From Eubacteriales bacterium (GTDB lineage: Bacteria > Bacillota > Clostridia > Oscillospirales > CAG-272), in the NCBI GenBank assembly GCA_045649165.1, contig JAZRPI010000122.1, positions 1-42,709 of the forward strand: DNA of 42,709 nucleotides, in the 5' to 3' direction. This document shows, piece by piece, positions 6,173 through 31,274 of this stretch. The position numbers and the translations under genes were made by a program. The first letter of the stretch is position 1. The number at the start of each line of letters is the position of its first letter. Below the pieces are notes generated by a model that was given only the letters and a program-made list of their open reading frames with translations, ran no database searches and had not been told where the DNA came from.

Positions 6173-6881
6173 ATATTGTAAAGAACATGGAGAATATGAG
6201 AGCCAAACAGCTGAAATACTTGGTCGTAAAATCTTTATTGGCTGCCCACAATGTGAAGCAGAAAAAACAAAAAAAGAACTTGAAGATTTGAAACAACAGG
6301 AACAACTTGCAATTGAAAAAGATTACATTAATCGTGGCATAGAACCTGAATTTTTTAATGCCACATTGGAAAATTTTATTCCAGAAAATGCAAGCGAACG
6401 AAAAGCACTAGAAGCTGCACAACTTATGGCTTCGGGGCAAATTAAAAAAATACTGTTGATTGGTCAAAATGGCGTAGGAAAGACACACCTTGTTAGTGCG
6501 CTTGCCAAAATAAAAAAAGGTAGAGTCTTAACAATGTTTCAGTTTAGTAGTTTATTGCGAGCAGGTTACAACAGAAAAAAAACTGAAATTGAAACAATCG
6601 AAGACGAGTTATTGTCATACCCATTAGTGGCAATCGATGAGTACGGTCTATCGAAATGTTCAGAAATGGAATTAAACAGCCTGGCATATTTCGTAGATAA
6701 ATGCCACACAAGAAACAAAGATATTGTACTAGTTTCAAATATTTTCACTTCTAAATCCGCCAAAAGTGATGCAATTGAAAATTACATTCCGAACGCAGTT
6801 ATATCCAGATTTATGTGTAACTCGGTAATAGTAGAGGTGGAAGGTCGTGACAGAAGACGGGCAACTTTTACTACCCTTTGA
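6147..6881 (+). CDS. DnaC/IstB-like AAA+ helicase loader with an N-terminal zinc ribbon
   Basis: Walker A GQNGVGKTHL, Walker B VAIDEYG, N-terminal C..H...CPQC. Confidence 0.8.
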   Translation: MTRRKTLLRYCKEHGEYESQTAEILGRKIFIGCPQCEAEKTKKELEDLKQQEQLAIEKDYINRGIEPEFFNATLENFIPENASERKALEAAQLMASGQIKKILLIGQNGVGKTHLVSALAKIKKGRVLTMFQFSSLLRAGYNRKKTEIETIEDELLSYPLVAIDEYGLSKCSEMELNSLAYFVDKCHTRNKDIVLVSNIFTSKSAKSDAIENYIPNAVISRFMCNSVIVEVEGRDRRRATFTTL

Positions 6882-9398: not shown

Positions 9399-9641
9399 AT
9401 GAAGTATACACCAGAAGAAATTAAAAACAGACTTTCCAACATTGGTGAAGCAATTGGCACAATTGCACTTGAATATATATCTGAATTAGAACAAGAAAAC
9501 GAGCAATTAGAACAACAGATTGAGAAAATGAAATGTTGTAGGAATTGCAAATATTGGAATGTACCTGATGATGTATTTAATACTCCTTGTGAAAAGTGCG
9601 ATGTATGTAAAGATTTTAACAAATGGGAGTTAGCAGAATGA
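9399..9641 (+). CDS. Hypothetical coiled-coil/Cys-rich protein
   Basis: 80 aa. GAGGTGG RBS. Confidence 0.55.
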   Translation: MKYTPEEIKNRLSNIGEAIGTIALEYISELEQENEQLEQQIEKMKCCRNCKYWNVPDDVFNTPCEKCDVCKDFNKWELAE

Positions 9642-10189
9642 CTAGAACACAAGCGGGAAGAAAAGCAAAAAAGAATGGTCAATATTTTGAAAACTTTTTA
9701 AATAAAGTTTTTAATACTTGCTCACAATTAGGATACTGCAATATCGAAAAAACACCAGAGCCTTTTAGATTTATTAAACCCTACTCTACAAATCTTTTTG
9801 TAGGTTGTTATATTAAGTCGGCCCAGCCCGATTATAAAGGCACATTAAAAGGTGGCAGAAGCATTGTATTAGAAGCAAAGAGTGTATCCACAGGAAAAAT
9901 AAGTTTGTCTGCTTTGACAGAAAACGAAATGGCAGAACTTATAAAACATAAAGAACTTGGGGCTTGTACAGGTGTAATTGTTTATGATTCTGCAAATGGG
10001 AATATTTATTTATTGCCAATTGTTATGTTCGAACGAATGCAAGACTTGTTTAATAGAAAACACATAAAACTAAAGGAAGTAGAAAAATTTTGCATAAACA
10101 CAAAATTGGTAAATAAGAACTTATCTGATTTATTTAGTTTTATAACTACTCGCACATTTGAAGATTGTCAAAAATTAATCGAATTGTAA
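9638..10189 (+). CDS. recU: RecU-like Holliday junction resolvase (PD-(D/E)xK)
   Basis: GQYFENFL..., PDYKG...GRSIVLEAKS pattern as in RecU. ATG at 9638 overlaps the previous stop (ATGA). Confidence 0.6.
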   Translation: MTRTQAGRKAKKNGQYFENFLNKVFNTCSQLGYCNIEKTPEPFRFIKPYSTNLFVGCYIKSAQPDYKGTLKGGRSIVLEAKSVSTGKISLSALTENEMAELIKHKELGACTGVIVYDSANGNIYLLPIVMFERMQDLFNRKHIKLKEVEKFCINTKLVNKNLSDLFSFITTRTFEDCQKLIEL

Positions 10190-12614: not shown

Positions 12615-12640
12615 AGCTCTGACAAGTTCAGAGCTTTTTT
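12615..12640 (+). terminator. Rho-independent terminator
   Basis: agctctga / tcagagct stem (8 bp) plus TTTTTT. Confidence 0.8.
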
Positions 12641-12646
12641 AATTTT

Positions 12647-12657
12647 AAAAGACTATA
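12647..12657 (+). promoter_or_regulatory. A-tract+GACTATA motif, copy 2 (5 nt from the ATG)
   Basis: aaaaGACTATAactatATG. No SD possible. Confidence 0.55.
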
Positions 12658-12662
12658 ACTAT

Positions 12663-13322
12663 ATGAGAGAAATAACACCAGATACAAAGATTAAATTATC
12701 ACAAATAAAAAGACTTATTACTGATAAACATAGTAAAGATCAAGTCGGAACAGTCAGAAGATGGTCAGATAATAAATTACATGAGAAAACAAGTCACGGG
12801 TGGAAAGTTGTAGCAAATAATAAAGAATATGAAATAAAAGAATATAAAGAAGAGAAATCAAGAAAAGATTTATCACCCAAAATAACAACACAAAAGCAAT
12901 TTAATATTTTTGTGGATAACTTATTTAATAAAAACTATAAAGAAGCTGTTTCTACGATTCACCTACCACAAATAGATAGAAAATTATTAAAACAATTAGG
13001 TATCAAAGATAACACGCAGTTTATTTTTAAAGCTAGATACCCACACATAAATCCACAGAGAAAAGCAAACGAAGGTCAAGCCTTAAGGGAAGAAGAATAC
13101 AAAGCCATTCCAAATGCAATAAAAAACGCAAAAGAAGCATATATTGATAAAGAGAATCATAATTTTTTTATTATATTTCAAGATTTAAAAGATAATTCAA
13201 TGGTAAACAAAATTGTATTCAATAAAACAATTAAAGGGAATTATTTAGTAACTATAGGAAAAGTAAATAAAAAGGAAAGTATGAATAAGAAAAAAATATT
13301 GCTCGTAAAAGGTAGGAGTTGA
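12663..13322 (+). CDS. Hypothetical protein sharing the N-terminal T-x-DTKIKL module with the 672-aa protein
   Basis: MREITPDTKIKL... compared with ...RITADTKIKL in the previous gene. The last 6 codons run into the minus-strand tRNA-like element. Confidence 0.6.
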   Translation: MREITPDTKIKLSQIKRLITDKHSKDQVGTVRRWSDNKLHEKTSHGWKVVANNKEYEIKEYKEEKSRKDLSPKITTQKQFNIFVDNLFNKNYKEAVSTIHLPQIDRKLLKQLGIKDNTQFIFKARYPHINPQRKANEGQALREEEYKAIPNAIKNAKEAYIDKENHNFFIIFQDLKDNSMVNKIVFNKTIKGNYLVTIGKVNKKESMNKKKILLVKGRS

Positions 13323-13379
13323 ACCTACATACCAGTCATAAAATAATGGCTGCCTATTTCCACATTTAGGTACATTTAC
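13304..13379 (-). tRNA. tRNA-like gene with a non-canonical anticodon arm (possible pseudo-tRNA or unusual tRNA)
   Basis: Minus strand: acceptor GTAAATG / CTTTTAC (6 of 7 bp), D-arm CCTA-AATGTGGAAA-TAGG, T-arm GTAGG-TTCAACT-CCTAC, variable loop GGTAT. The anticodon stem AGCCA / TGACT has one C-A mismatch and an 8-nt loop TTATTTTA. Confidence 0.45.
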
Positions 13380-13391
13380 GAGCTTACTATT

Positions 13392-13420
13392 ATAATAAGC
13401 TATTTTTATTAATAAGTCAA
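13392..13420 (-). promoter_or_regulatory. Sigma70-like promoter for the tRNA-like gene, TTGACT-17 nt-TATTAT
   Basis: Minus strand: TTGACT (13420..13415), 17-nt spacer, TATTAT (13397..13392). The -10 ends 12 nt upstream of the tRNA-like 5' end. Confidence 0.5.
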
Positions 13421-13438
13421 ATAAAACTTTCCATACAA

Positions 13439-13454: not shown

Positions 13455-14768
13455 ATGGAAGTAAAATGCAAAACACAACACACACTACCCTTGGAAGAAT
13501 TAACAGAGTTTCAAGGGAACCTCAAAGAACGAGATAATGTCGATATTGGCAAAATTATCAAGTCAATTAAAAAGCATGGTTTCTCGTTTCCTTTCTTTGT
13601 TTGGAATCATGATGCAATTAATCATGTATTGGACAGTCACGGAAGACTTAAAGCCTTACAACAAATGGTAGCACACGGGGAAAATATTCCAGAATTACCA
13701 ATTGTATATGTAGACTGTCGTGATGAAGCCGATGCAAAAGAATTGTTACTTAAATTAAACAGTCAATACGGAAAAATGACTGCAGAAAGTATAAAAGACT
13801 TTCTCGGAGATTTACAAATAGATTTTACAGAGTTAGCAATTCCTGACGGATTCCTGGACCTTTCAATTTTGGAAGAACCCAAAGAAAAAACAGACGATGA
13901 TGAAGCTCCTGAAATTGACTATGAAGAACCTGCTCAAAGCGAACAAGGGCAAGTGTATGAACTTGGTCCTCATAGATTAATGTGTGGAGACAGCACTAGC
14001 GCAGAAGATATGGCAATTCTTATGAATGGAGCTAAAGCCGATTTAATCATAACAGACCCACCATACAATGTTGATTATGAAGGAAGTAACGGAAAAAAAA
14101 TCCAAAACGACAAAATGGAAGATAACTCATTTTTAAACTTTCTGACTGCGGCATTTAAAACAATGCTTGGAGTTCTTAAAAACGGTGGCGTTTATTATAT
14201 ATGGCACGCAGATAGTGAAGGTTTTAATTTCAGACAAGCGATAAAAAACTGTGGTGGTATTGTTCGGCAATGTTTGATATGGGTTAAAAATAGTCTTGTT
14301 TTAGGTCGCCAGGATTACCAATGGAGACACGAACCTTGTCTATATGGTTGGAAAGAAGGCGCTGGTCACTATTGGGAAGGTGCTCGTGATTTATCCACAG
14401 TAATAGACAACAGACCAAATTATAAAACAATGAACAAAGATGAACTCATTGAAGAAATAAAAAAACTTCGAGGTGACAATATCCCGTCAACGATTATCTA
14501 CGAAGATAAACCAAGTAAAAATGATGATCACTCAACAATGAAGCCTGTCAAACTTTTTGAACGATTAATCAAAAACAGTTCAAAGGAAGAGGATATTATT
14601 CTCGACCCATTCGGTGGTTCAGGAACAACTATTATTGCATCACAGAAATTAAACAGACACGCAAGATTAATGGAACTTGACCCAAAATATTGTGATGTTA
14701 TCAGAAAGCGTTGGACTAAATACGCAAAAGAAAACGGTCTAGAAATTGGTAGTGGAGGATTAGAATAA
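13455..14768 (+). CDS. ParB-like N-terminal domain fused to an N6-adenine/N4-cytosine DNA methyltransferase
   Basis: IITDPPYNVDY (DPPY catalytic motif) and DPFGGSGTTIIA (SAM binding). The N-terminal 100 aa are ParB/Srx-like. Confidence 0.9.
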   Translation: MEVKCKTQHTLPLEELTEFQGNLKERDNVDIGKIIKSIKKHGFSFPFFVWNHDAINHVLDSHGRLKALQQMVAHGENIPELPIVYVDCRDEADAKELLLKLNSQYGKMTAESIKDFLGDLQIDFTELAIPDGFLDLSILEEPKEKTDDDEAPEIDYEEPAQSEQGQVYELGPHRLMCGDSTSAEDMAILMNGAKADLIITDPPYNVDYEGSNGKKIQNDKMEDNSFLNFLTAAFKTMLGVLKNGGVYYIWHADSEGFNFRQAIKNCGGIVRQCLIWVKNSLVLGRQDYQWRHEPCLYGWKEGAGHYWEGARDLSTVIDNRPNYKTMNKDELIEEIKKLRGDNIPSTIIYEDKPSKNDDHSTMKPVKLFERLIKNSSKEEDIILDPFGGSGTTIIASQKLNRHARLMELDPKYCDVIRKRWTKYAKENGLEIGSGGLE

Positions 14769-16715: not shown

Positions 16716-18372
16716 TGAATCAGAAAAAAATGAATCCTGGAAAAAAATATTCGATGTATTGGCATCTAGAGAATCAGACGAAATAACGAAAGATTCTGCA
16801 ACAGAAATAATACTAGATGCAGGAGAGCTCCAAACAATTAGAGATACACTCTATGAAGAGGTGAAGTCCAATCTTGGAGAAGTCCAAAGTTTGGACGAAA
16901 TGAAACAATCACTAGTAATTGATACAAAAAAATTAGTAGATACATCGCTAACAAGAGCCAAAGAAGAATTAAAACTGATGAAAAATCAAGGCATTGTTCA
17001 AGATGGATATTACAATCCTATTAGTGGAATAGGAACTTCTATTGACCCAGGTATTCACACAAAATCATTTATTCCTGTTTCTATGTCACCATCAGAAGCA
17101 ACTAGTTATTATGCGAGCGGTGGCATTCCAACAAAAGTAATTAATAAAAAAAGTGGATGTTTGAACTTAGATGGTATTAAATTTGAAGGGAAAGATTGGA
17201 GTCCAGAAGAACTAACACAATTAGCCGATTATGCACAAGAATGTGGATTTACAGATGCAAAAGCACAAGCAGATGTGAATGCATTAATTTATGGTGGGGC
17301 TATTGTTTATCCAAAGTTTGAAAATGACAATCCAATTTTGACACAAAAAAATATTAATGAAATATTGGCCGCTCAAACAAAAGAAAAAGATTTTATTAAA
17401 TATTGGGTAAATGTTGACAGATGGAATTGTGTGTTTGTACCTGAAACAAATATCACACTCCAAGATTATATGTACGCCAAGTCGGTTTTTATTCCACTTG
17501 GTGGTGAACGAGTAAATACACAACGCTGCGCAATGGTTCGACCAAACAAGCAACCGTTCTGGTCTGCAATTACTCAAATGGGGTGGTCAACTTCTGACTT
17601 TGAAGGTTGGATAAAGGATTTTGAGAGCTACGCAATTATGAAGGCTTCTTTGCCAATTATGGCACAACAAATGAGTTTGATGTATCACTCCTTCCCTGCT
17701 GACGGATTAATAATTGAAAACGGTCCAAAGTATGCAGAGCAATTCTTTAAAAAGAATGAAGCAGAAATGAGAGATTGGTCTATGCTCAATCCTAAAGCAA
17801 TAAATAGTGTTGGAGAAATTAAAATCCTTGACCGTACATATTCAGGATTTAAGGATTTGATTCAAGAATCAAAAATAGCCTTTGCAGCAGGTTGTGGAAT
17901 CCCCGAAAGCGTTTTATTTGCAGAAAAGCCAAGCGGCCTTGCAAGTGATAACTCAAACGATGTTGAACTTAAACAAAGTGAAACAATCAGATTGTTATTT
18001 AATAACATAGCGCCAAGTTATAAAAACTGTATCGAATTACTAGTTTATTCCTGTTTTGGTAGAAATAGTGATCAAGCTAAAAAGGCTAAAAATGTGAGAA
18101 TTGCTCCAGACACAGGAATAATCGTATCAGACCAAGATAAAGCACAACTCGGTCAGGCATTTGCAGCAATTCAAGGACAATTAATAGGCACAGGTTGGCC
18201 GCTAAAAGAAGCCGTTACAATGGCTCAAAAGTTTGTACCTTCTGCAGAAATCGACGATAACATTATGGATACATTGACACAAGGTGAATCAGAAGGAATG
18301 GACGAAAACTTGTGGAATAAACTCAACAGAAATAACGGAAATGATGGAGGATTTGAAAATGGACAATTATGA
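16693..18372 (+). CDS. Portal protein
   Basis: 559 aa, immediately after TerL and before the MuF-like gene. Confidence 0.7.
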   Translation: MATFKSLSESEKNESWKKIFDVLASRESDEITKDSATEIILDAGELQTIRDTLYEEVKSNLGEVQSLDEMKQSLVIDTKKLVDTSLTRAKEELKLMKNQGIVQDGYYNPISGIGTSIDPGIHTKSFIPVSMSPSEATSYYASGGIPTKVINKKSGCLNLDGIKFEGKDWSPEELTQLADYAQECGFTDAKAQADVNALIYGGAIVYPKFENDNPILTQKNINEILAAQTKEKDFIKYWVNVDRWNCVFVPETNITLQDYMYAKSVFIPLGGERVNTQRCAMVRPNKQPFWSAITQMGWSTSDFEGWIKDFESYAIMKASLPIMAQQMSLMYHSFPADGLIIENGPKYAEQFFKKNEAEMRDWSMLNPKAINSVGEIKILDRTYSGFKDLIQESKIAFAAGCGIPESVLFAEKPSGLASDNSNDVELKQSETIRLLFNNIAPSYKNCIELLVYSCFGRNSDQAKKAKNVRIAPDTGIIVSDQDKAQLGQAFAAIQGQLIGTGWPLKEAVTMAQKFVPSAEIDDNIMDTLTQGESEGMDENLWNKLNRNNGNDGGFENGQL

Positions 18373-18562
18373 TATTTTCAGACGCGTAATGGAAAAAAAA
18401 CACGAAGTTATGAAATCTTGGGATGAAGTTGTATTTGAAGCTGAAATCCCTCTTAGAAGTTGGATGACAGGAATAATGACTTCTAATCCCACAGATGCAG
18501 AATTAAAAGCAATAGCACCTGTTCTAAATACAACATTTGAATGGCTCAAATATGGCAAATAA
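18359..18562 (+). CDS. Hypothetical small protein
   Basis: ATG at 18359 after GGAGGA. The longer ORF-track start lies inside the portal gene. Confidence 0.45.
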   Translation: MDNYDIFRRVMEKKHEVMKSWDEVVFEAEIPLRSWMTGIMTSNPTDAELKAIAPVLNTTFEWLKYGK

Positions 18563-20464: not shown

Positions 20465-20698
20465 ATGGCAGAAGTGACAGACAAAGAATACAACAAATGG
20501 AAAAGCAGAAGATGGCTTATTACATTGTGGGCAATGCTTATGGTGACATTCATTGTTGTTTTTTCAATGATTAGAAATACAAGCGATTGGGTAACTCTTG
20601 CTACAACATTAGTTGCTGTTCCTGTTGCTTTTACATCGCTTGAAACCTTGAATAAAAGGCACATTAAAAAGCAAGAGTTTGAAGGAGATAATGAATGA
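20465..20698 (+). CDS. Holin (two TM helices, charged C-terminus)
   Basis: 77 aa. TM helices WLITLWAMLMVTFIVVFSMI and VTLATTLVAVPVAF, with tail KRHIKKQEFEGDNE. Confidence 0.6.
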   Translation: MAEVTDKEYNKWKSRRWLITLWAMLMVTFIVVFSMIRNTSDWVTLATTLVAVPVAFTSLETLNKRHIKKQEFEGDNE

Positions 20699-20997
20699 AA
20701 GCATATTTAATAATGGGATTGATAATCCTTGTTTTATTTGTGTTAGTAATAATTTTTATAAAATGTTTAATAAGTTCTTCAGAGAAAAACAAAGAACTTA
20801 AAAAACAACTTCAAGCAAGGAATGAGAATATAAAACAATTACTGATACATTCTGAACAACTTGTAACAATAAATCAGAAAAAGACAGATGTTTATAAACA
20901 ATTAGCGGAGGCGAAATCAGATGAAGAGATTAATAAAATTATTGCTAATCTTATTAGTTCTAATAACAATAAGTTGCAAAAGCACACCACAAAATAA
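20695..20997 (+). CDS. i-spanin (N-terminal TM helix plus coiled coil)
   Basis: YLIMGLIILVLFVLVIIFI followed by charged coiled-coil sequence. Confidence 0.6.
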   Translation: MKAYLIMGLIILVLFVLVIIFIKCLISSSEKNKELKKQLQARNENIKQLLIHSEQLVTINQKKTDVYKQLAEAKSDEEINKIIANLISSNNNKLQKHTTK

Positions 20998-21145
20998 AGT
21001 AGAACTGCCACCAGAACCACAAAGGCAAATACAAGAAAATCCCGAAACCATACAAGAGTATGCGTTTTTTGTGGCTTACTTAGAATTCTTAATACAAGAA
21101 TGGGAAGCATGGGGAGAGACAGCAAAACAGGCAATAAAGGAGTAG
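20921..21145 (+). CDS. o-spanin lipoprotein, overlapping the i-spanin gene in another frame
   Basis: MKRLIKLLLILLVLITISCKS signal with lipobox Cys. Pro-rich mature part. Starts inside 20695..20997. Confidence 0.6.
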   Translation: MKRLIKLLLILLVLITISCKSTPQNKVELPPEPQRQIQENPETIQEYAFFVAYLEFLIQEWEAWGETAKQAIKE

Positions 21146-21161: not shown

Positions 21162-21197
21162 GAGCAAGGTACGCTTCCAGCCTTGCTCGTTTTTTTT
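21162..21197 (+). terminator. Rho-independent terminator
   Basis: gagcaagg / ccttgctc stem plus gtttttttt. Confidence 0.75.
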
Positions 21198-21224
21198 GAG
21201 TTATTCGGAAAAACAGAACAACTC

Positions 21225-21235
21225 AAAAGACTATA
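21225..21235 (+). promoter_or_regulatory. A-tract+GACTATA motif, copy (5 nt from the ATG)
   Basis: caaaaGACTATAaaggtATG. Confidence 0.55.
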
Positions 21236-21240
21236 AAGGT

Positions 21241-22431
21241 ATGGCAGAATTAAAGAATATCAGAATAGCAGTAAGTGGAATTTATGATTATGCATTGGAA
21301 GAGATTCCAAGTTTAAGACTACCAATGCCAGGACACGGTGCTCCTGATTGGGTTGAAGAAAAGAGAATTTATAAAGTTTATAGACCCGCTGAAACATTAA
21401 GAAGAGCTTGCGACAAGTTCAAAATGTTACCTTTGACACATTATCATCCACAATCACCTGTGAACGAGCAAAACTTTAGAGACTTAACTATCGGATACAC
21501 AGGGGAAAATCCATTTATTGATTACATCAAAGATAAAGATGAAGTAGGAATCCGTAGTAATGTTATGCTTTGTGATCAAGAAGCAATGGATTCATACAAC
21601 CGTGGCGAAACACAACTATCACCAGGATATGTTGCAGAGTTTGAATGGAAAAAAGGAACAGACCCACACGGGAACGAATATGACATTGTTATGAAAGAAA
21701 TAACAGATGTGAATCACCTTGCGTTATTACCTGCAGGCCGTGGTGGTAGTTATGCGGTTGTTTTAGATGAAGCACCAAAAAGAAAAACAATTTTTGACCT
21801 TGTAAATACAAAAGACGGTGCACCGATAGGAAACGATAACGCAAGTAAAGACCATAAAAAAGAAAATTCGGAAGGCTTGAGTGATAAAGAAAAAACTCAT
21901 CTTACAAAATTATTAAAAGAAAACGCTGTAGAATTTCCAATTGTAGAATTTTCAGAAGAGAATTATAAGAAATACTTGGGAACACCAATTGATACTCCAT
22001 TAGGGAAAGTGAAACTCGGTGAAAATCAATTTGAAAAATTAAAAGCAAAAAATAGGCAAAATCTAATAGGGGCAATACGGGAAACACTAAGCAAACCTTG
22101 TTTTATAGCAGAGGAAAAAAACGGAACAACTCTATATGTGAAATCTTTTACAAAAGATAACGAACAGAAAAATATTATGTCTGTTGTTATAAAAAGGGAT
22201 GGTTTAAATATTTCTATAAGTACTCATGAAGAACGAGAAAGTCAGATTTTAGCAAAAATAAAAAAAGCTGGCGTTCTCAAGGAGACAGCCAGCGACGACG
22301 GCACTGTACACGATAAATGTGTAGCCGATACAACTCGCGTTGTTTCTTTGATAATAACAGAAGATACCCAAAAAGTCAAAACAATTTTTGAACGCGTACA
22401 AGGAACGGTGTTTGACCGTTACAGAAAATAA
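21241..22431 (+). CDS. DUF2213-like prohead protease/scaffold protein with a roughly 190-aa C-terminal extension
   Basis: YKVYRPAETL..., LPLTHYHP, QLSPGYVAEF, DVNHLALLPAGRGG match the DUF2213 pattern. ATG at 21241 preferred over the track start at 21196. Confidence 0.65.
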   Translation: MAELKNIRIAVSGIYDYALEEIPSLRLPMPGHGAPDWVEEKRIYKVYRPAETLRRACDKFKMLPLTHYHPQSPVNEQNFRDLTIGYTGENPFIDYIKDKDEVGIRSNVMLCDQEAMDSYNRGETQLSPGYVAEFEWKKGTDPHGNEYDIVMKEITDVNHLALLPAGRGGSYAVVLDEAPKRKTIFDLVNTKDGAPIGNDNASKDHKKENSEGLSDKEKTHLTKLLKENAVEFPIVEFSEENYKKYLGTPIDTPLGKVKLGENQFEKLKAKNRQNLIGAIRETLSKPCFIAEEKNGTTLYVKSFTKDNEQKNIMSVVIKRDGLNISISTHEERESQILAKIKKAGVLKETASDDGTVHDKCVADTTRVVSLIITEDTQKVKTIFERVQGTVFDRYRK

Positions 22432-29659: not shown

Positions 29660-31274
29660 TGAAAGCATTGGTGGATTCTTTGTAGACCTTGGAATAAAAA
29701 CAGATGGCAGTATTGAAAAAGGAATCGGACAATTTGAAGGATTGACAAATTCTGTCAGTCGATTAATAGGAACAATACGCAATGTTTCTGCCGCTTCTTT
29801 TGCATTGGCAGCTGTAACAAGTACAATGGAGACTGCAGAACTTCACGCAGCCGAATTATTAAATACTAATGCAGAAACACTCACAATGTGGAAAATTGCA
29901 GCATCTACAGCAACTGCAGATTCTAAAGGGGTTATATCTTCATTAACAAGTCTTGAAGAAAAAATGCAAGGTCTTAAATTTGGAAAGGTTGATCAAGGCC
30001 TTGCAGAAAGCCTAAGCAGATTAAACATAGGATATCAACAACTAGCAGATATGGATTTGACTCAACGGGTTAAATTGATATTTGAAAGAGCAACGGAACT
30101 ACAGGACCAGGACCAAGCAGAACGCCTTATAGGTCAAATACTTGGTGATTCTGGAATGAAAATGTTTAATTATATGAAATTACAAGGGGTATCTCTTGAT
30201 GAATTATTATTAAACGCACAACAAAGTGTATTCACAGGAACAGAAAGCAAAATAAAAGCAATGAGTTTTGCATCGGAACTTAATGCGCTTAAATCGTCAT
30301 TAAAAGAATTATCTGCTTTGACAGGTTCAGAACTTGGGGGAATATTTGAGCCACTAGTAGCAGGACTAAATGATTTAATCCAAAAACACCATGATTTAAT
30401 ACAAAGTGGAATTATTGATACATTTGAAGGATTGAAAAATGTAATGATTGAACTTAGTCCACAGATTGAAGCTGTTGGTGATAGTTTTGCAGAATTAATA
30501 AAAAATCTAACAGATACAAAAAGTCTTGATGAAGCATTAAAGAAAATAAATACATCACTTGGGGGATTTGCAGAAAATCTCACAAAAAGTGTGTTCGAAG
30601 GAACTGCAGATACAATTGATTTTTTAGCAAAATTATCAGAAGGAGACTTCAAAGGAGCATTTGAATCATATAAAAAAGGATTTACAAATTTTGCAGAAAA
30701 TACAACAGATTTAGTTTTAAATAATACTGATGAAAAAAAAGCACTTCGAGAACAACAAAATAAAGATTATGATGTACTAAAGGAAAAACTTAATCCTTAC
30801 ATTTATAATAAGTTAGGTAATATTAGATATGGGGATTTACCAGAAGAACTAAAAGAAGAAATAATAAATTATTATAAGAAATATGATCCATACCCAATAG
30901 CGGGTTTAAAATTTACAAAGGATGAAAAAAAAGATTTTAACAAAAGGGTTTCTATCAATGATGGAATCGTTAAACCAAACGGAGATGTTATAAACATAAG
31001 TCCTGATGATTGGGTATTTGCAATGAAAGACCCATCCAACTTAACAGGTGGAATAAGCCCCGAAAGTATCAAAAGTTTAGTATCTAAATCTGTGGGAAGT
31101 ATACAAAATAATGTAACAGAAAATATAACAGTAAACCAAACTTTTAATATTACAGGCACAAACAATCTGCCACAGACAATAAAACAGCAAGCCCAAAAAG
31201 GAATATATGACGGTGTGGGAGATTTGCTGCAAAAAAGTTCTACTAGACTGCAACTGATGTCAGGGATAAAATAA
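29652..31274 (+). CDS. Tape measure protein
   Basis: 540 aa, helical and low complexity, at the canonical position. Confidence 0.75.
   Translation: MSDESIGGFFVDLGIKTDGSIEKGIGQFEGLTNSVSRLIGTIRNVSAASFALAAVTSTMETAELHAAELLNTNAETLTMWKIAASTATADSKGVISSLTSLEEKMQGLKFGKVDQGLAESLSRLNIGYQQLADMDLTQRVKLIFERATELQDQDQAERLIGQILGDSGMKMFNYMKLQGVSLDELLLNAQQSVFTGTESKIKAMSFASELNALKSSLKELSALTGSELGGIFEPLVAGLNDLIQKHHDLIQSGIIDTFEGLKNVMIELSPQIEAVGDSFAELIKNLTDTKSLDEALKKINTSLGGFAENLTKSVFEGTADTIDFLAKLSEGDFKGAFESYKKGFTNFAENTTDLVLNNTDEKKALREQQNKDYDVLKEKLNPYIYNKLGNIRYGDLPEELKEEIINYYKKYDPYPIAGLKFTKDEKKDFNKRVSINDGIVKPNGDVINISPDDWVFAMKDPSNLTGGISPESIKSLVSKSVGSIQNNVTENITVNQTFNITGTNNLPQTIKQQAQKGIYDGVGDLLQKSSTRLQLMSGIK

Follow-up and report, generated by a model that had tools for sequence, protein, structure and literature searches.

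What is a cloverleaf-shaped element doing on the minus strand of a phage gene cluster, and is it a transfer RNA (tRNA) at all? The window examined here, the whole 42,709-bp stretch of contig JAZRPI010000122.1 (assembly GCA_045649165.1, Eubacteriales bacterium), is a tailed phage or prophage of low GC content (~34%). At 13379-13304 on its minus strand, an earlier note had read a tRNA-like gene with its own promoter and an 8-nt anticodon loop, running into the end of a 219-aa open reading frame (ORF; 12663..13322, plus strand). We find that this element is a real, conserved small-RNA gene with a tRNA-shaped fold. Judged by sequence comparison, it represents a new tRNA-like small-RNA family, absent from Rfam and coupled to an effector-type domain of phage proteins.

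Anatomy of the RNA gene

The core of the gene is an 83-nt cloverleaf (13301..13383, minus strand), supported by ARAGORN, the Rfam model RF00005, RNAfold, a family covariance model and covariation. Its closing stem pairs 13383-13373 with 13311-13301 in 11 bp, one of them U-U, and comprises an 'acceptor' GTAAATG/CTTTTAC with a single T-T mismatch, prolonged by GCTC/GAGC for 4 bp beyond position 1/72. Enclosed by this stem, and all on the minus strand, are a D-like arm (13370-13353; stem CCTA/TAGG), a middle arm (13351-13334; stem AGCCA/TGACT with a C-A mismatch) whose 8-nt loop TTATTTTA (RNA UUAUUUUA; 13346-13339) is the expanded anticodon loop of the earlier note, a junction GGUAU (13333-13329; the variable region GGTAT) and a T-like arm GTAGG-TTCAACT-CCTAC (13328-13312). 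The RNA overlaps the 3' end of the 219-aa ORF, antisense, by 22 nt, and the TGA stop of the ORF falls within the T loop.

A consensus promoter scan places a sigma-70-type promoter at 13392..13420 (minus strand), with a -35 box TTGACT at 13420-13415, a 17-nt spacer and a -10 box TATTAT at 13397-13392 that ends 12 nt before 13379. Past the closing stem, AAUA and then U7 (13290..13300, minus strand; T7 run at 13296-13290) form a likely intrinsic-terminator tail. Because the predicted transcription start (~13385/13384) lies 1-2 nt before the closing stem and the end falls in the U run, the whole transcript would be the cloverleaf: a small RNA of ~95 nt (bases 13385-13290, minus strand), made from its own constitutive-type promoter, ended through the closing stem and U run, and folded as a tRNA-shaped four-way junction. 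RNAfold folds the window RNA as a cloverleaf.

ARAGORN calls one gene only in the 42.7-kb window, at 13303-13380 (minus strand), as 'tRNA-???' with a 4-base anticodon (attt). RF00005, run on a 451-nt neighbourhood, matches 13304-13379 (minus strand) at 33.3 bits (gathering score 29; E 2.7e-5). A whole-window Rfam scan at gathering thresholds did not list this match, presumably on account of its speed filters; filtered whole-window Rfam scans can lose AT-rich tRNA-like elements. As description, then, the earlier note stands: the near-canonical cloverleaf and its arms can all be read in the sequence, the promoter is recovered by scan, the T7 run and the ORF overlap are present, both tRNA models report a tRNA-like element, and the abnormal anticodon arm, with its C-A mismatch and 8-nt loop, is there and is kept in seven related contigs.

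Conservation of the RNA and of its fold

A protein search returned 28 full-length homologues of the ORF (43-100% identity), none of them with a name or a Pfam domain, and homologues of its C-terminal domain at 33-96% identity occur in Clostridia-type gut phages, Helicobacter prophages and a Campylobacter phage. By tblastn against cultured and curated phages, the domain was located in prophages of Helicobacter cinaedi, H. canis and H. apodemus and in Campylobacter phage CAM-P21. Directly behind every homologue whose DNA was read lies a minus-strand cloverleaf RNA of 81-95 nt. In what follows, loci other than the window carry numbers from L001 onward.

Where the ORF is 90-96% identical (L004-L009, L013), RNA and promoter are nearly invariant, including the C-A mismatch and the 8-nt loop, which reads TAATTTTA (RNA UAAUUUUA) in L004-L009. 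In these same six loci the 'acceptor' is changed at positions 4 and 5 on its 5' side and 68 on its 3' side, giving U-U, C-C and U-U, and ARAGORN makes no tRNA call there; the outer helix GCUCGUA/UACGAGC, the equivalent of a tRNA leader and trailer, stays perfect. The minus-strand RNA also marks the end of homology at 47-61% identity (L010, L011, L012, L014, L015) and at 38% (L016-L020). In each case a promoter precedes it and a U-rich tail follows, its closing stem measures 8-11 bp, and inside this stem are a small D-like arm, a long middle hairpin and a T-like arm in which 5 bp carry a 7-nt loop. All four of the Helicobacter and Campylobacter loci read (L023, L025 and L026; CAM-P21, L024) carry the cloverleaf as well. 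An equivalent promoter, its -10 box ending 5-9 nt before the closing stem, was found at 15 related loci checked; in three Helicobacter loci the promoters are of an extended -10 kind (TGTGGTATAAT type), and the Campylobacter locus has no clear promoter match. A U-rich tail directly follows the closing stem in most loci and is less clear in Campylobacter and two Helicobacter loci.

Across the family it is the architecture rather than the tRNA likeness that is held constant. The middle arm is a hairpin of 5-11 bp with a loop of 3-5 nt (UUU, UUUU, UUUA, UUCU, GUUCU, GAAA, AUCA or AUUAA) in 13 of 15 sequences, and the loop has 8 nt only in the AT-rich clade of the window. Conservation of the 8-nt loop, which the earlier note had proposed to check, holds within that clade and ends at its border, and comparison between clades makes the 'expanded anticodon loop' a local variant of a non-anticodon hairpin. 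T loops are tRNA-like in some clades (UUCAACU, UUCGAUU) and non-canonical in others (AGCAACG, UGCGACU), and GG in the D loop is present in several clades and absent from others. Unpaired junction motifs, (U)GAUG and GUAU, are kept throughout the RNA family. Among the homologues of the RNA there is no ordinary 7-nt-loop tRNA version, and Rfam matched nothing but RF00005 in all sequences searched, above threshold for the window RNA only (L011 reaches 27.7 bits).

The middle-arm loops are U-rich, with UUU in 7 of 15 and UUC in 5 of 15; these are the anticodons of tRNA-Lys and tRNA-Glu, a likeness that may be chance where loops are short. ARAGORN names the H. canis copy (L025:1922-2001, minus strand) 'tRNA-Lys (ttt)' and the copy in an Anaerobutyricum metagenome-assembled genome (L015:2158-2237, minus strand) 'tRNA-??? 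(tt)'. In CAM-P21 (MW462221) the annotation places a 30-aa 'hypothetical protein', probably spurious, on the plus strand at the exact site of the cloverleaf RNA (L024:1971-2063). In the H. cinaedi prophage a run of ~14 G (plus-strand C; L023:3045-3060) separates the RNA promoter from the next gene start, a homopolymer of the kind that phase-varies in Helicobacter.

Exact and degenerate DNA patterns (T arm with closing stem; D-arm region) matched no IMG/VR contig, and megablast and blastn of the region or the RNA against cultured phages gave no match. By DNA-pattern search, the RNA family is rare or absent in IMG/VR contigs.

Is the fold itself selected? Folded as single sequences by RNAfold, 9 of the first 11 RNAs and three of the four later ones (L023-L025) form a four-way junction. 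An alignment of the raw RNA set by MAFFT and RNAalifold recovered the T arm only, and because the ends and the middle arm were misaligned it was replaced by a manual segment table and a covariance-model alignment. In the manual table (15 sequences), 95.6% of 411 cells hold standard pairs, with compensatory changes at 30 of 32 helix positions and 40 G-U pairs; these last would be mismatches on the plus strand and so place the structure on the minus-strand RNA. The covariance model, R1, was built from distant clades only (L012, L016-L020, L023, L024) and run on all loci. The pairing fraction in its alignment is 92.5% of cells; shuffles give 57.1 +/- 1.8% (none of 500 as high) and slid controls 40-51%, and all 27 pairs show changes on both sides; both alignments were fitted to the structure, so that their pairing percentages lean high.

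The single-sequence folds and the cross-clade match of R1 are independent of this bias. R1 finds the window RNA at 13302-13382 with 30.5 bits (E 8.8e-6), as the single match in the window, and finds further loci outside its training set (L010 and L015 at 33 bits, L026 at 38.5, L011 at 20.7, L025 at 18.7). No match arose in the searched loci that lack the domain. A match on the plus strand of L019 (4721-4802; 19.5 bits), with neither a cloverleaf look nor a promoter, was treated as a false positive.

Stand-alone genes have the 5' closing strand, D arm and middle arm beyond the stop codon, and these parts nevertheless co-vary with the 3' strand, which is coding. Translation of the T arm uses different frames: CTC GTA AAA GGT AGG AGT TGA (LVKGRS*) in the window, and GTC GTA GGG GAA GGA GTC GCA CCT TCT ATA TAG (VVGEGVAPSI*) in L012. 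Near-consensus antisense promoters are kept at a fixed distance even inside ORFs, as in L017 (TTGACT-17-TATACT). These patterns indicate that selection acts on the RNA, beyond the peptide alone.

One RNA for each copy of the domain

The ORF has two parts, a small N-terminal module (residues 1 to ~60; 12663-12840) and the domain to which the RNA is linked (residues ~60-219), whose C-terminal end overlaps the RNA antisense. An exhaustive hidden Markov model (HMM) search also found this domain inside polyvalent proteins of 1600-3442 aa that carry PBECR2/3, ART-PolyVal, MuF_C, LPD3, LPD23, RadC and SprT domains. In L017, L019 and L025 the RNA gene sits wholly inside the longer ORF, directly after the domain; L018 looks alike by sequence reading, its ORF not being listed. 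A linker G[VI][AE]P[TH] follows the domain in every one of the 20 copies examined, drawn from 20 multidomain proteins of 467-3442 aa, and GVEPT is the translation of GTAGGAGTTGAACCTAC, the antisense of a window-type T arm. In the protein P0035 the domain occurs twice, and a linker of this kind follows both times.

The H. canis prophage BK070053 (L030; 45.7 kb) offers the same arrangement at the level of the DNA. It has two domain copies, at 18013-18384 and 20518-20889, and exactly two model matches, at 18430-18518 and 20935-21023 (minus strand), each ~46 nt after a domain copy. By genomic linkage, there is one RNA per domain copy, across phyla. The same prophage also encodes a retron-type reverse transcriptase (29883-30935) and a VapC toxin (6191-6592).

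The domain also keeps particular company. In CAM-P21 and the H. apodemus prophage (L026) it is a C-terminal extension of the MuF protein, and in P0036 it follows MuF_C by ~50 residues. From this company among polyvalent and MuF effector domains, an analogy suggests a function in conflict. Loci with the N-terminal module only (L021, L022) contain no cloverleaf RNA. That module, with the motif GTVRRWxDxKLHxKxxHGW, is a separate unit that is fused to LPD3 and LPD13 in other phage proteins (P0030-P0032).

The protein itself is lysine-rich, hydrophilic and soluble-looking, and no Pfam family matches it. An AlphaFold2 model (predicted local distance difference test score 84, predicted template-modelling score 0.78) has a small beta N-terminal module and an alpha/beta C-terminal domain that ends in a four-stranded sheet. 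Against BFVD, Foldseek matched this model only to uncharacterised phage and polyvalent proteins; against the PDB it matched no solved structure (best E 0.28, no BECR entry), and a PDB sequence search with the domain gave no match.

An exchangeable cassette

Comparison with an IMG/VR contig (L001) delimits the unit that moves. From 13432 onward L001 is 97% identical to the window in DNA, its methylase being 98% identical, and 5' of that point the only notable match is 51 nt long (12645-12695). From these homology breaks at 12695 and 13432, the exchanged unit comprises the body of the ORF together with the RNA gene and its promoter (12696..13431).

In L001 and L002 the slot is occupied by a different ORF (219 or 217 aa), of which the first 11 residues are the same and which in L002 has a weak LPD3 match. 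It too is met by a convergent small RNA with a TTGACT promoter and a T run (L001:1905-1992 and L002:2870-2950, minus strand), and this RNA is a different one: a three-way junction of a closing stem and two hairpins, with folding z-scores of -3.5 and -4.4. In the L001/L002 cassette, protein and RNA may form another pair that works by the same logic. A convergent small RNA is not general to LPD3 genes, since those of L004, L010 and L027 lack such an element.

Proposed function and alternatives

What might the RNA do for a phage that keeps it beside this one domain? We tentatively favour, with a little less than even confidence, the reading that the RNA is the cognate partner of the effector-type domain and, antidote-like, keeps the domain inactive. 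The RNA would bind the domain (residues ~60-219) as a tRNA-like ligand, so that a potentially harmful effector stays inactive in the lysogen or producing cell, and would act possibly as an antidote in the manner of a type III antitoxin or an immunity factor. The polyvalent proteins in which such domains sit are proposed to pass into the host cell together with the DNA. Three considerations, by analogy and from sequence features, speak for it: the constant architecture and unpaired junction motifs suit recognition by a protein and are unneeded by a perfectly complementary antisense RNA; ORF and RNA are swapped as a cassette, like toxin-immunity pairs; and the domain stands where MuF polymorphic toxins carry their toxin. 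As for an immunity protein, no candidate emerged; in the window the space between ORF and methylase holds the RNA, and in CAM-P21 a 30-aa ORF overlies the RNA.

A more specific form of the partner reading, which we regard as unlikely though worth stating, makes the RNA an immunity factor that, as a tRNA mimic, occupies the substrate site of a phage-delivered, tRNA-acting domain and silences it in the producing cell. Every copy of the domain within a polyvalent protein would have an antidote gene of its own on the opposite strand, and the U-rich, closed middle-arm loops would mimic the anticodon region of tRNA-Lys or tRNA-Glu in an unprocessable form.

Several points weigh against the partner reading in either form. 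All family searches were protein-first, and physical overlap alone would make RNA and domain travel together, so that their occurring together says less about a protein-RNA interaction than it seems to; the lean of the pairing percentages has been given above. Toxicity of the domain is an assumption: Pfam matches are sub-threshold only (PBECR3 at 19.8 bits against a cut-off of 30; LPD13 at E 0.011), and the idea that it is a PBECR (BECR-fold) ribonuclease (RNase) found no support, with an hhalign probability of 0.3% against PBECR3 and no structural match. Finally, the window RNA differs from type III antitoxins in being single, convergent and transcribed from its own promoter.

The main rival, which we consider unlikely but a serious contender, is a pure cis-antisense regulator. 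The RNA would pair with the complementary sense transcript, leading to cleavage or to a block of expression, in the way of lambda OOP RNA with cII or of type I antitoxin RNAs with the toxin genes whose 3' ends they overlap; its target would be the end of the ORF and the spacer between ORF and methylase in the window, and the inter-domain linker in polyvalent mRNAs, and the cloverleaf would serve only stability and loop-loop kissing. This accords with convergent transcription of the RNA from a promoter of its own, with its overlap with a gene's 3' end and with its place in a prophage-type genome. It also accords with a table in a review of H. pylori which lists antisense RNAs opposite HP1116 (HPnc5970, HPnc6000), HP0488 (HPnc2240, HPnc2250) and HP0637 (HPnc3200, HPnc3210) from a study of strain 26695 by differential RNA sequencing (Sharma et al. 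2010; PMC8322730). The Helicobacter copy of the domain lies in a mosaic polyvalent family named after HP1116, and the HPnc transcripts are only candidate matches to the RNA. Complementarity, however, needs no fixed sequence, and the antisense explanation leaves unaccounted for the four-way junction, the 7-nt T-like loop and the junction motifs that are shared from Clostridia to Campylobacterota phages. In the window, moreover, the overlap with the ORF is only 22 nt, and the product opposite, hydrophilic and 219 aa long, is no type I toxin peptide.

An improbable alternative is that the RNA is a tRNA decoy for factors of the host or of a competitor, such as a tRNA-targeting defence nuclease or a tRNA-modifying enzyme, and that its linkage to the domain is merely physical. 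The tRNA-like T arm, the D-loop GG in several clades and the U-rich middle loops, with UUU or UUC in most, would suit such a decoy, and a preprint reports phage tRNAs acting against a tRNA-cleaving retron defence (bioRxiv 10.1101/2023.03.15.532788). The likeness nevertheless fails in other clades, where the T loop is non-canonical and the D-loop GG missing, and the RNA has been seen so far only beside the domain, one per copy, even in heavily shuffled polyvalent proteins.

It is highly improbable that the element has no function as RNA, and is instead a conserved peptide linker (for example a processing site of polyvalent proteins), a decayed tRNA or the remnant of an attachment site. The region is translated in polyvalent proteins, and the peptide G[VI][AE]P[TH] recurs; yet in stand-alone genes most of the element lies past the stop without losing its covariation with the coding half, two frames are used across the T arm, the antisense promoters are conserved and the G-U pairs exist on the minus strand only. 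The recently decayed tRNA pseudogene entertained in the earlier note likewise finds no support, given a conserved promoter and four helices kept by compensatory changes across phyla.

That the RNA is a functional tRNA whose 8-nt anticodon loop reads quadruplets or +1 frameshifts is largely refuted and barely credible: ARAGORN's 4-base anticodon, an RF00005 score above gathering and retention of the loop in close relatives stand in its favour, but homologues have hairpins of 6-11 bp with loops of 3-5 nt, the commonest close variant has three acceptor mismatches and goes uncalled by ARAGORN, and the window RNA itself has a C-A mismatch in the stem, no purine at the loop position matching tRNA 37, no encoded CCA end and 4 more bp between leader and trailer. 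Because the middle arm is not an anticodon arm elsewhere, we consider it very unlikely that the window RNA decodes. Of the explanations offered in the earlier note, a tRNA-derived or tRNA-like regulatory RNA comes closest to the facts; what it lacked was the pairing with a protein domain encoded on the opposite strand.

Relation to known systems

Parallels exist to several kinds of RNA, and the match is partial each time. Lambda OOP RNA (opposite cII) and the type I antitoxins RatA/txpA and SR4/bsrG are short RNAs with their own promoters that converge on and overlap the 3' end of a prophage gene, and the window RNA shares its promoter, convergence and overlap with them. They act, however, by extended base-pairing, and their targets are cII or small hydrophobic peptides; here the overlap is short and the partner is a domain of 160 aa, found within giant ORFs as well. 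To our knowledge, OOP and the type I antitoxin RNAs have no conserved tRNA-like four-way junction.

In type III systems (ToxI/ToxN, CptIN), a structured RNA binds and so neutralises a protein, each protein variant having one RNA cognate to it, and this is the logic proposed for the window pair. ToxI-type genes are tandem-repeat arrays that precede the toxin gene on its own strand and are processed by the toxin; sequence reading, done without a repeat finder, made no tandem repeats evident at the window RNA.

As described by Jamet et al. 2017 (PMC5576092), MuF polymorphic toxins have a C-terminal toxin domain and a downstream immunity gene, and Iyer et al. 2017 (PMC5512222) describe the PBECR, ART and LPD domains that keep company in polyvalent proteins. 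The domain resembles these systems in standing C-terminal to MuF (L024, L026) or beside PBECR, ART and LPD domains, and in belonging to a cassette that differs between near-identical phages. It differs from them in having no Pfam family, and in that the two papers (PMC5576092, PMC5512222) speak of protein immunity ORFs and, in the passages searched, mention no RNA partner.

With the Y RNA YrlA and viral tRNA-like structures, the window RNA has in common a tRNA-shaped, non-decoding module with a T-like arm. In YrlA the ends form a Ro-binding stem, whereas those of the window RNA form an acceptor-like stem, and there was no match to an Rfam Y RNA. The frameshift suppressors sufD and SufB2 are ordinary tRNAs with one inserted anticodon-loop base; the likeness is an 8-nt loop on a 5-bp stem in a tRNA-like fold, and the difference is that in every other clade the arm is not an anticodon arm. 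Our literature search found no description of this cloverleaf RNA.

Genomic setting

Upstream of the 219-aa ORF lie RecU (9623-10189) and then a 672-aa ORF without assigned function. Downstream (3') follow a ParB-N6/N4 DNA methylase (13455-14768), the large terminase, the portal and a MuF-like protein; among these plus-strand genes the RNA gene is the sole minus-strand element. A terminator-like hairpin with a T run (12615-12635, plus strand) separates the 672-aa and 219-aa ORFs, and the cassette of ORF and RNA may therefore be transcriptionally insulated from the genes upstream.

The phage in the window has a second effector-type domain, a predicted RNase, PBECR2, at the C-terminus of a DUF2213 head-protease-like protein (21196-22431, plus strand); the family covariance model finds no RNA beside it. 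Among the neighbouring window genes scanned, no TROVE (Ro60) domain was found.

Significance

The family runs from phages of gut Clostridia to those of Helicobacter and Campylobacter, and pairs one-to-one, as far as genomic linkage tells, with an uncharacterised domain of MuF and polyvalent proteins. Because tRNA finders sometimes call its members, they could be misread as phage tRNAs or as quadruplet decoders. Promoter-bearing RNA genes, it appears, can sit antisense in giant phage ORFs and shape the linker peptides of the proteins that these encode. If the RNA does bind or neutralise the domain, it would provide an experimental way into the domain's function, and an RNA-based mechanism of immunity would be added to the polymorphic toxin systems of phages. 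Should the RNA prove to be an immunity factor in the stricter sense, protein effector, tRNA-shaped RNA and antisense-embedded gene would together make up a new class of toxin-antidote system.

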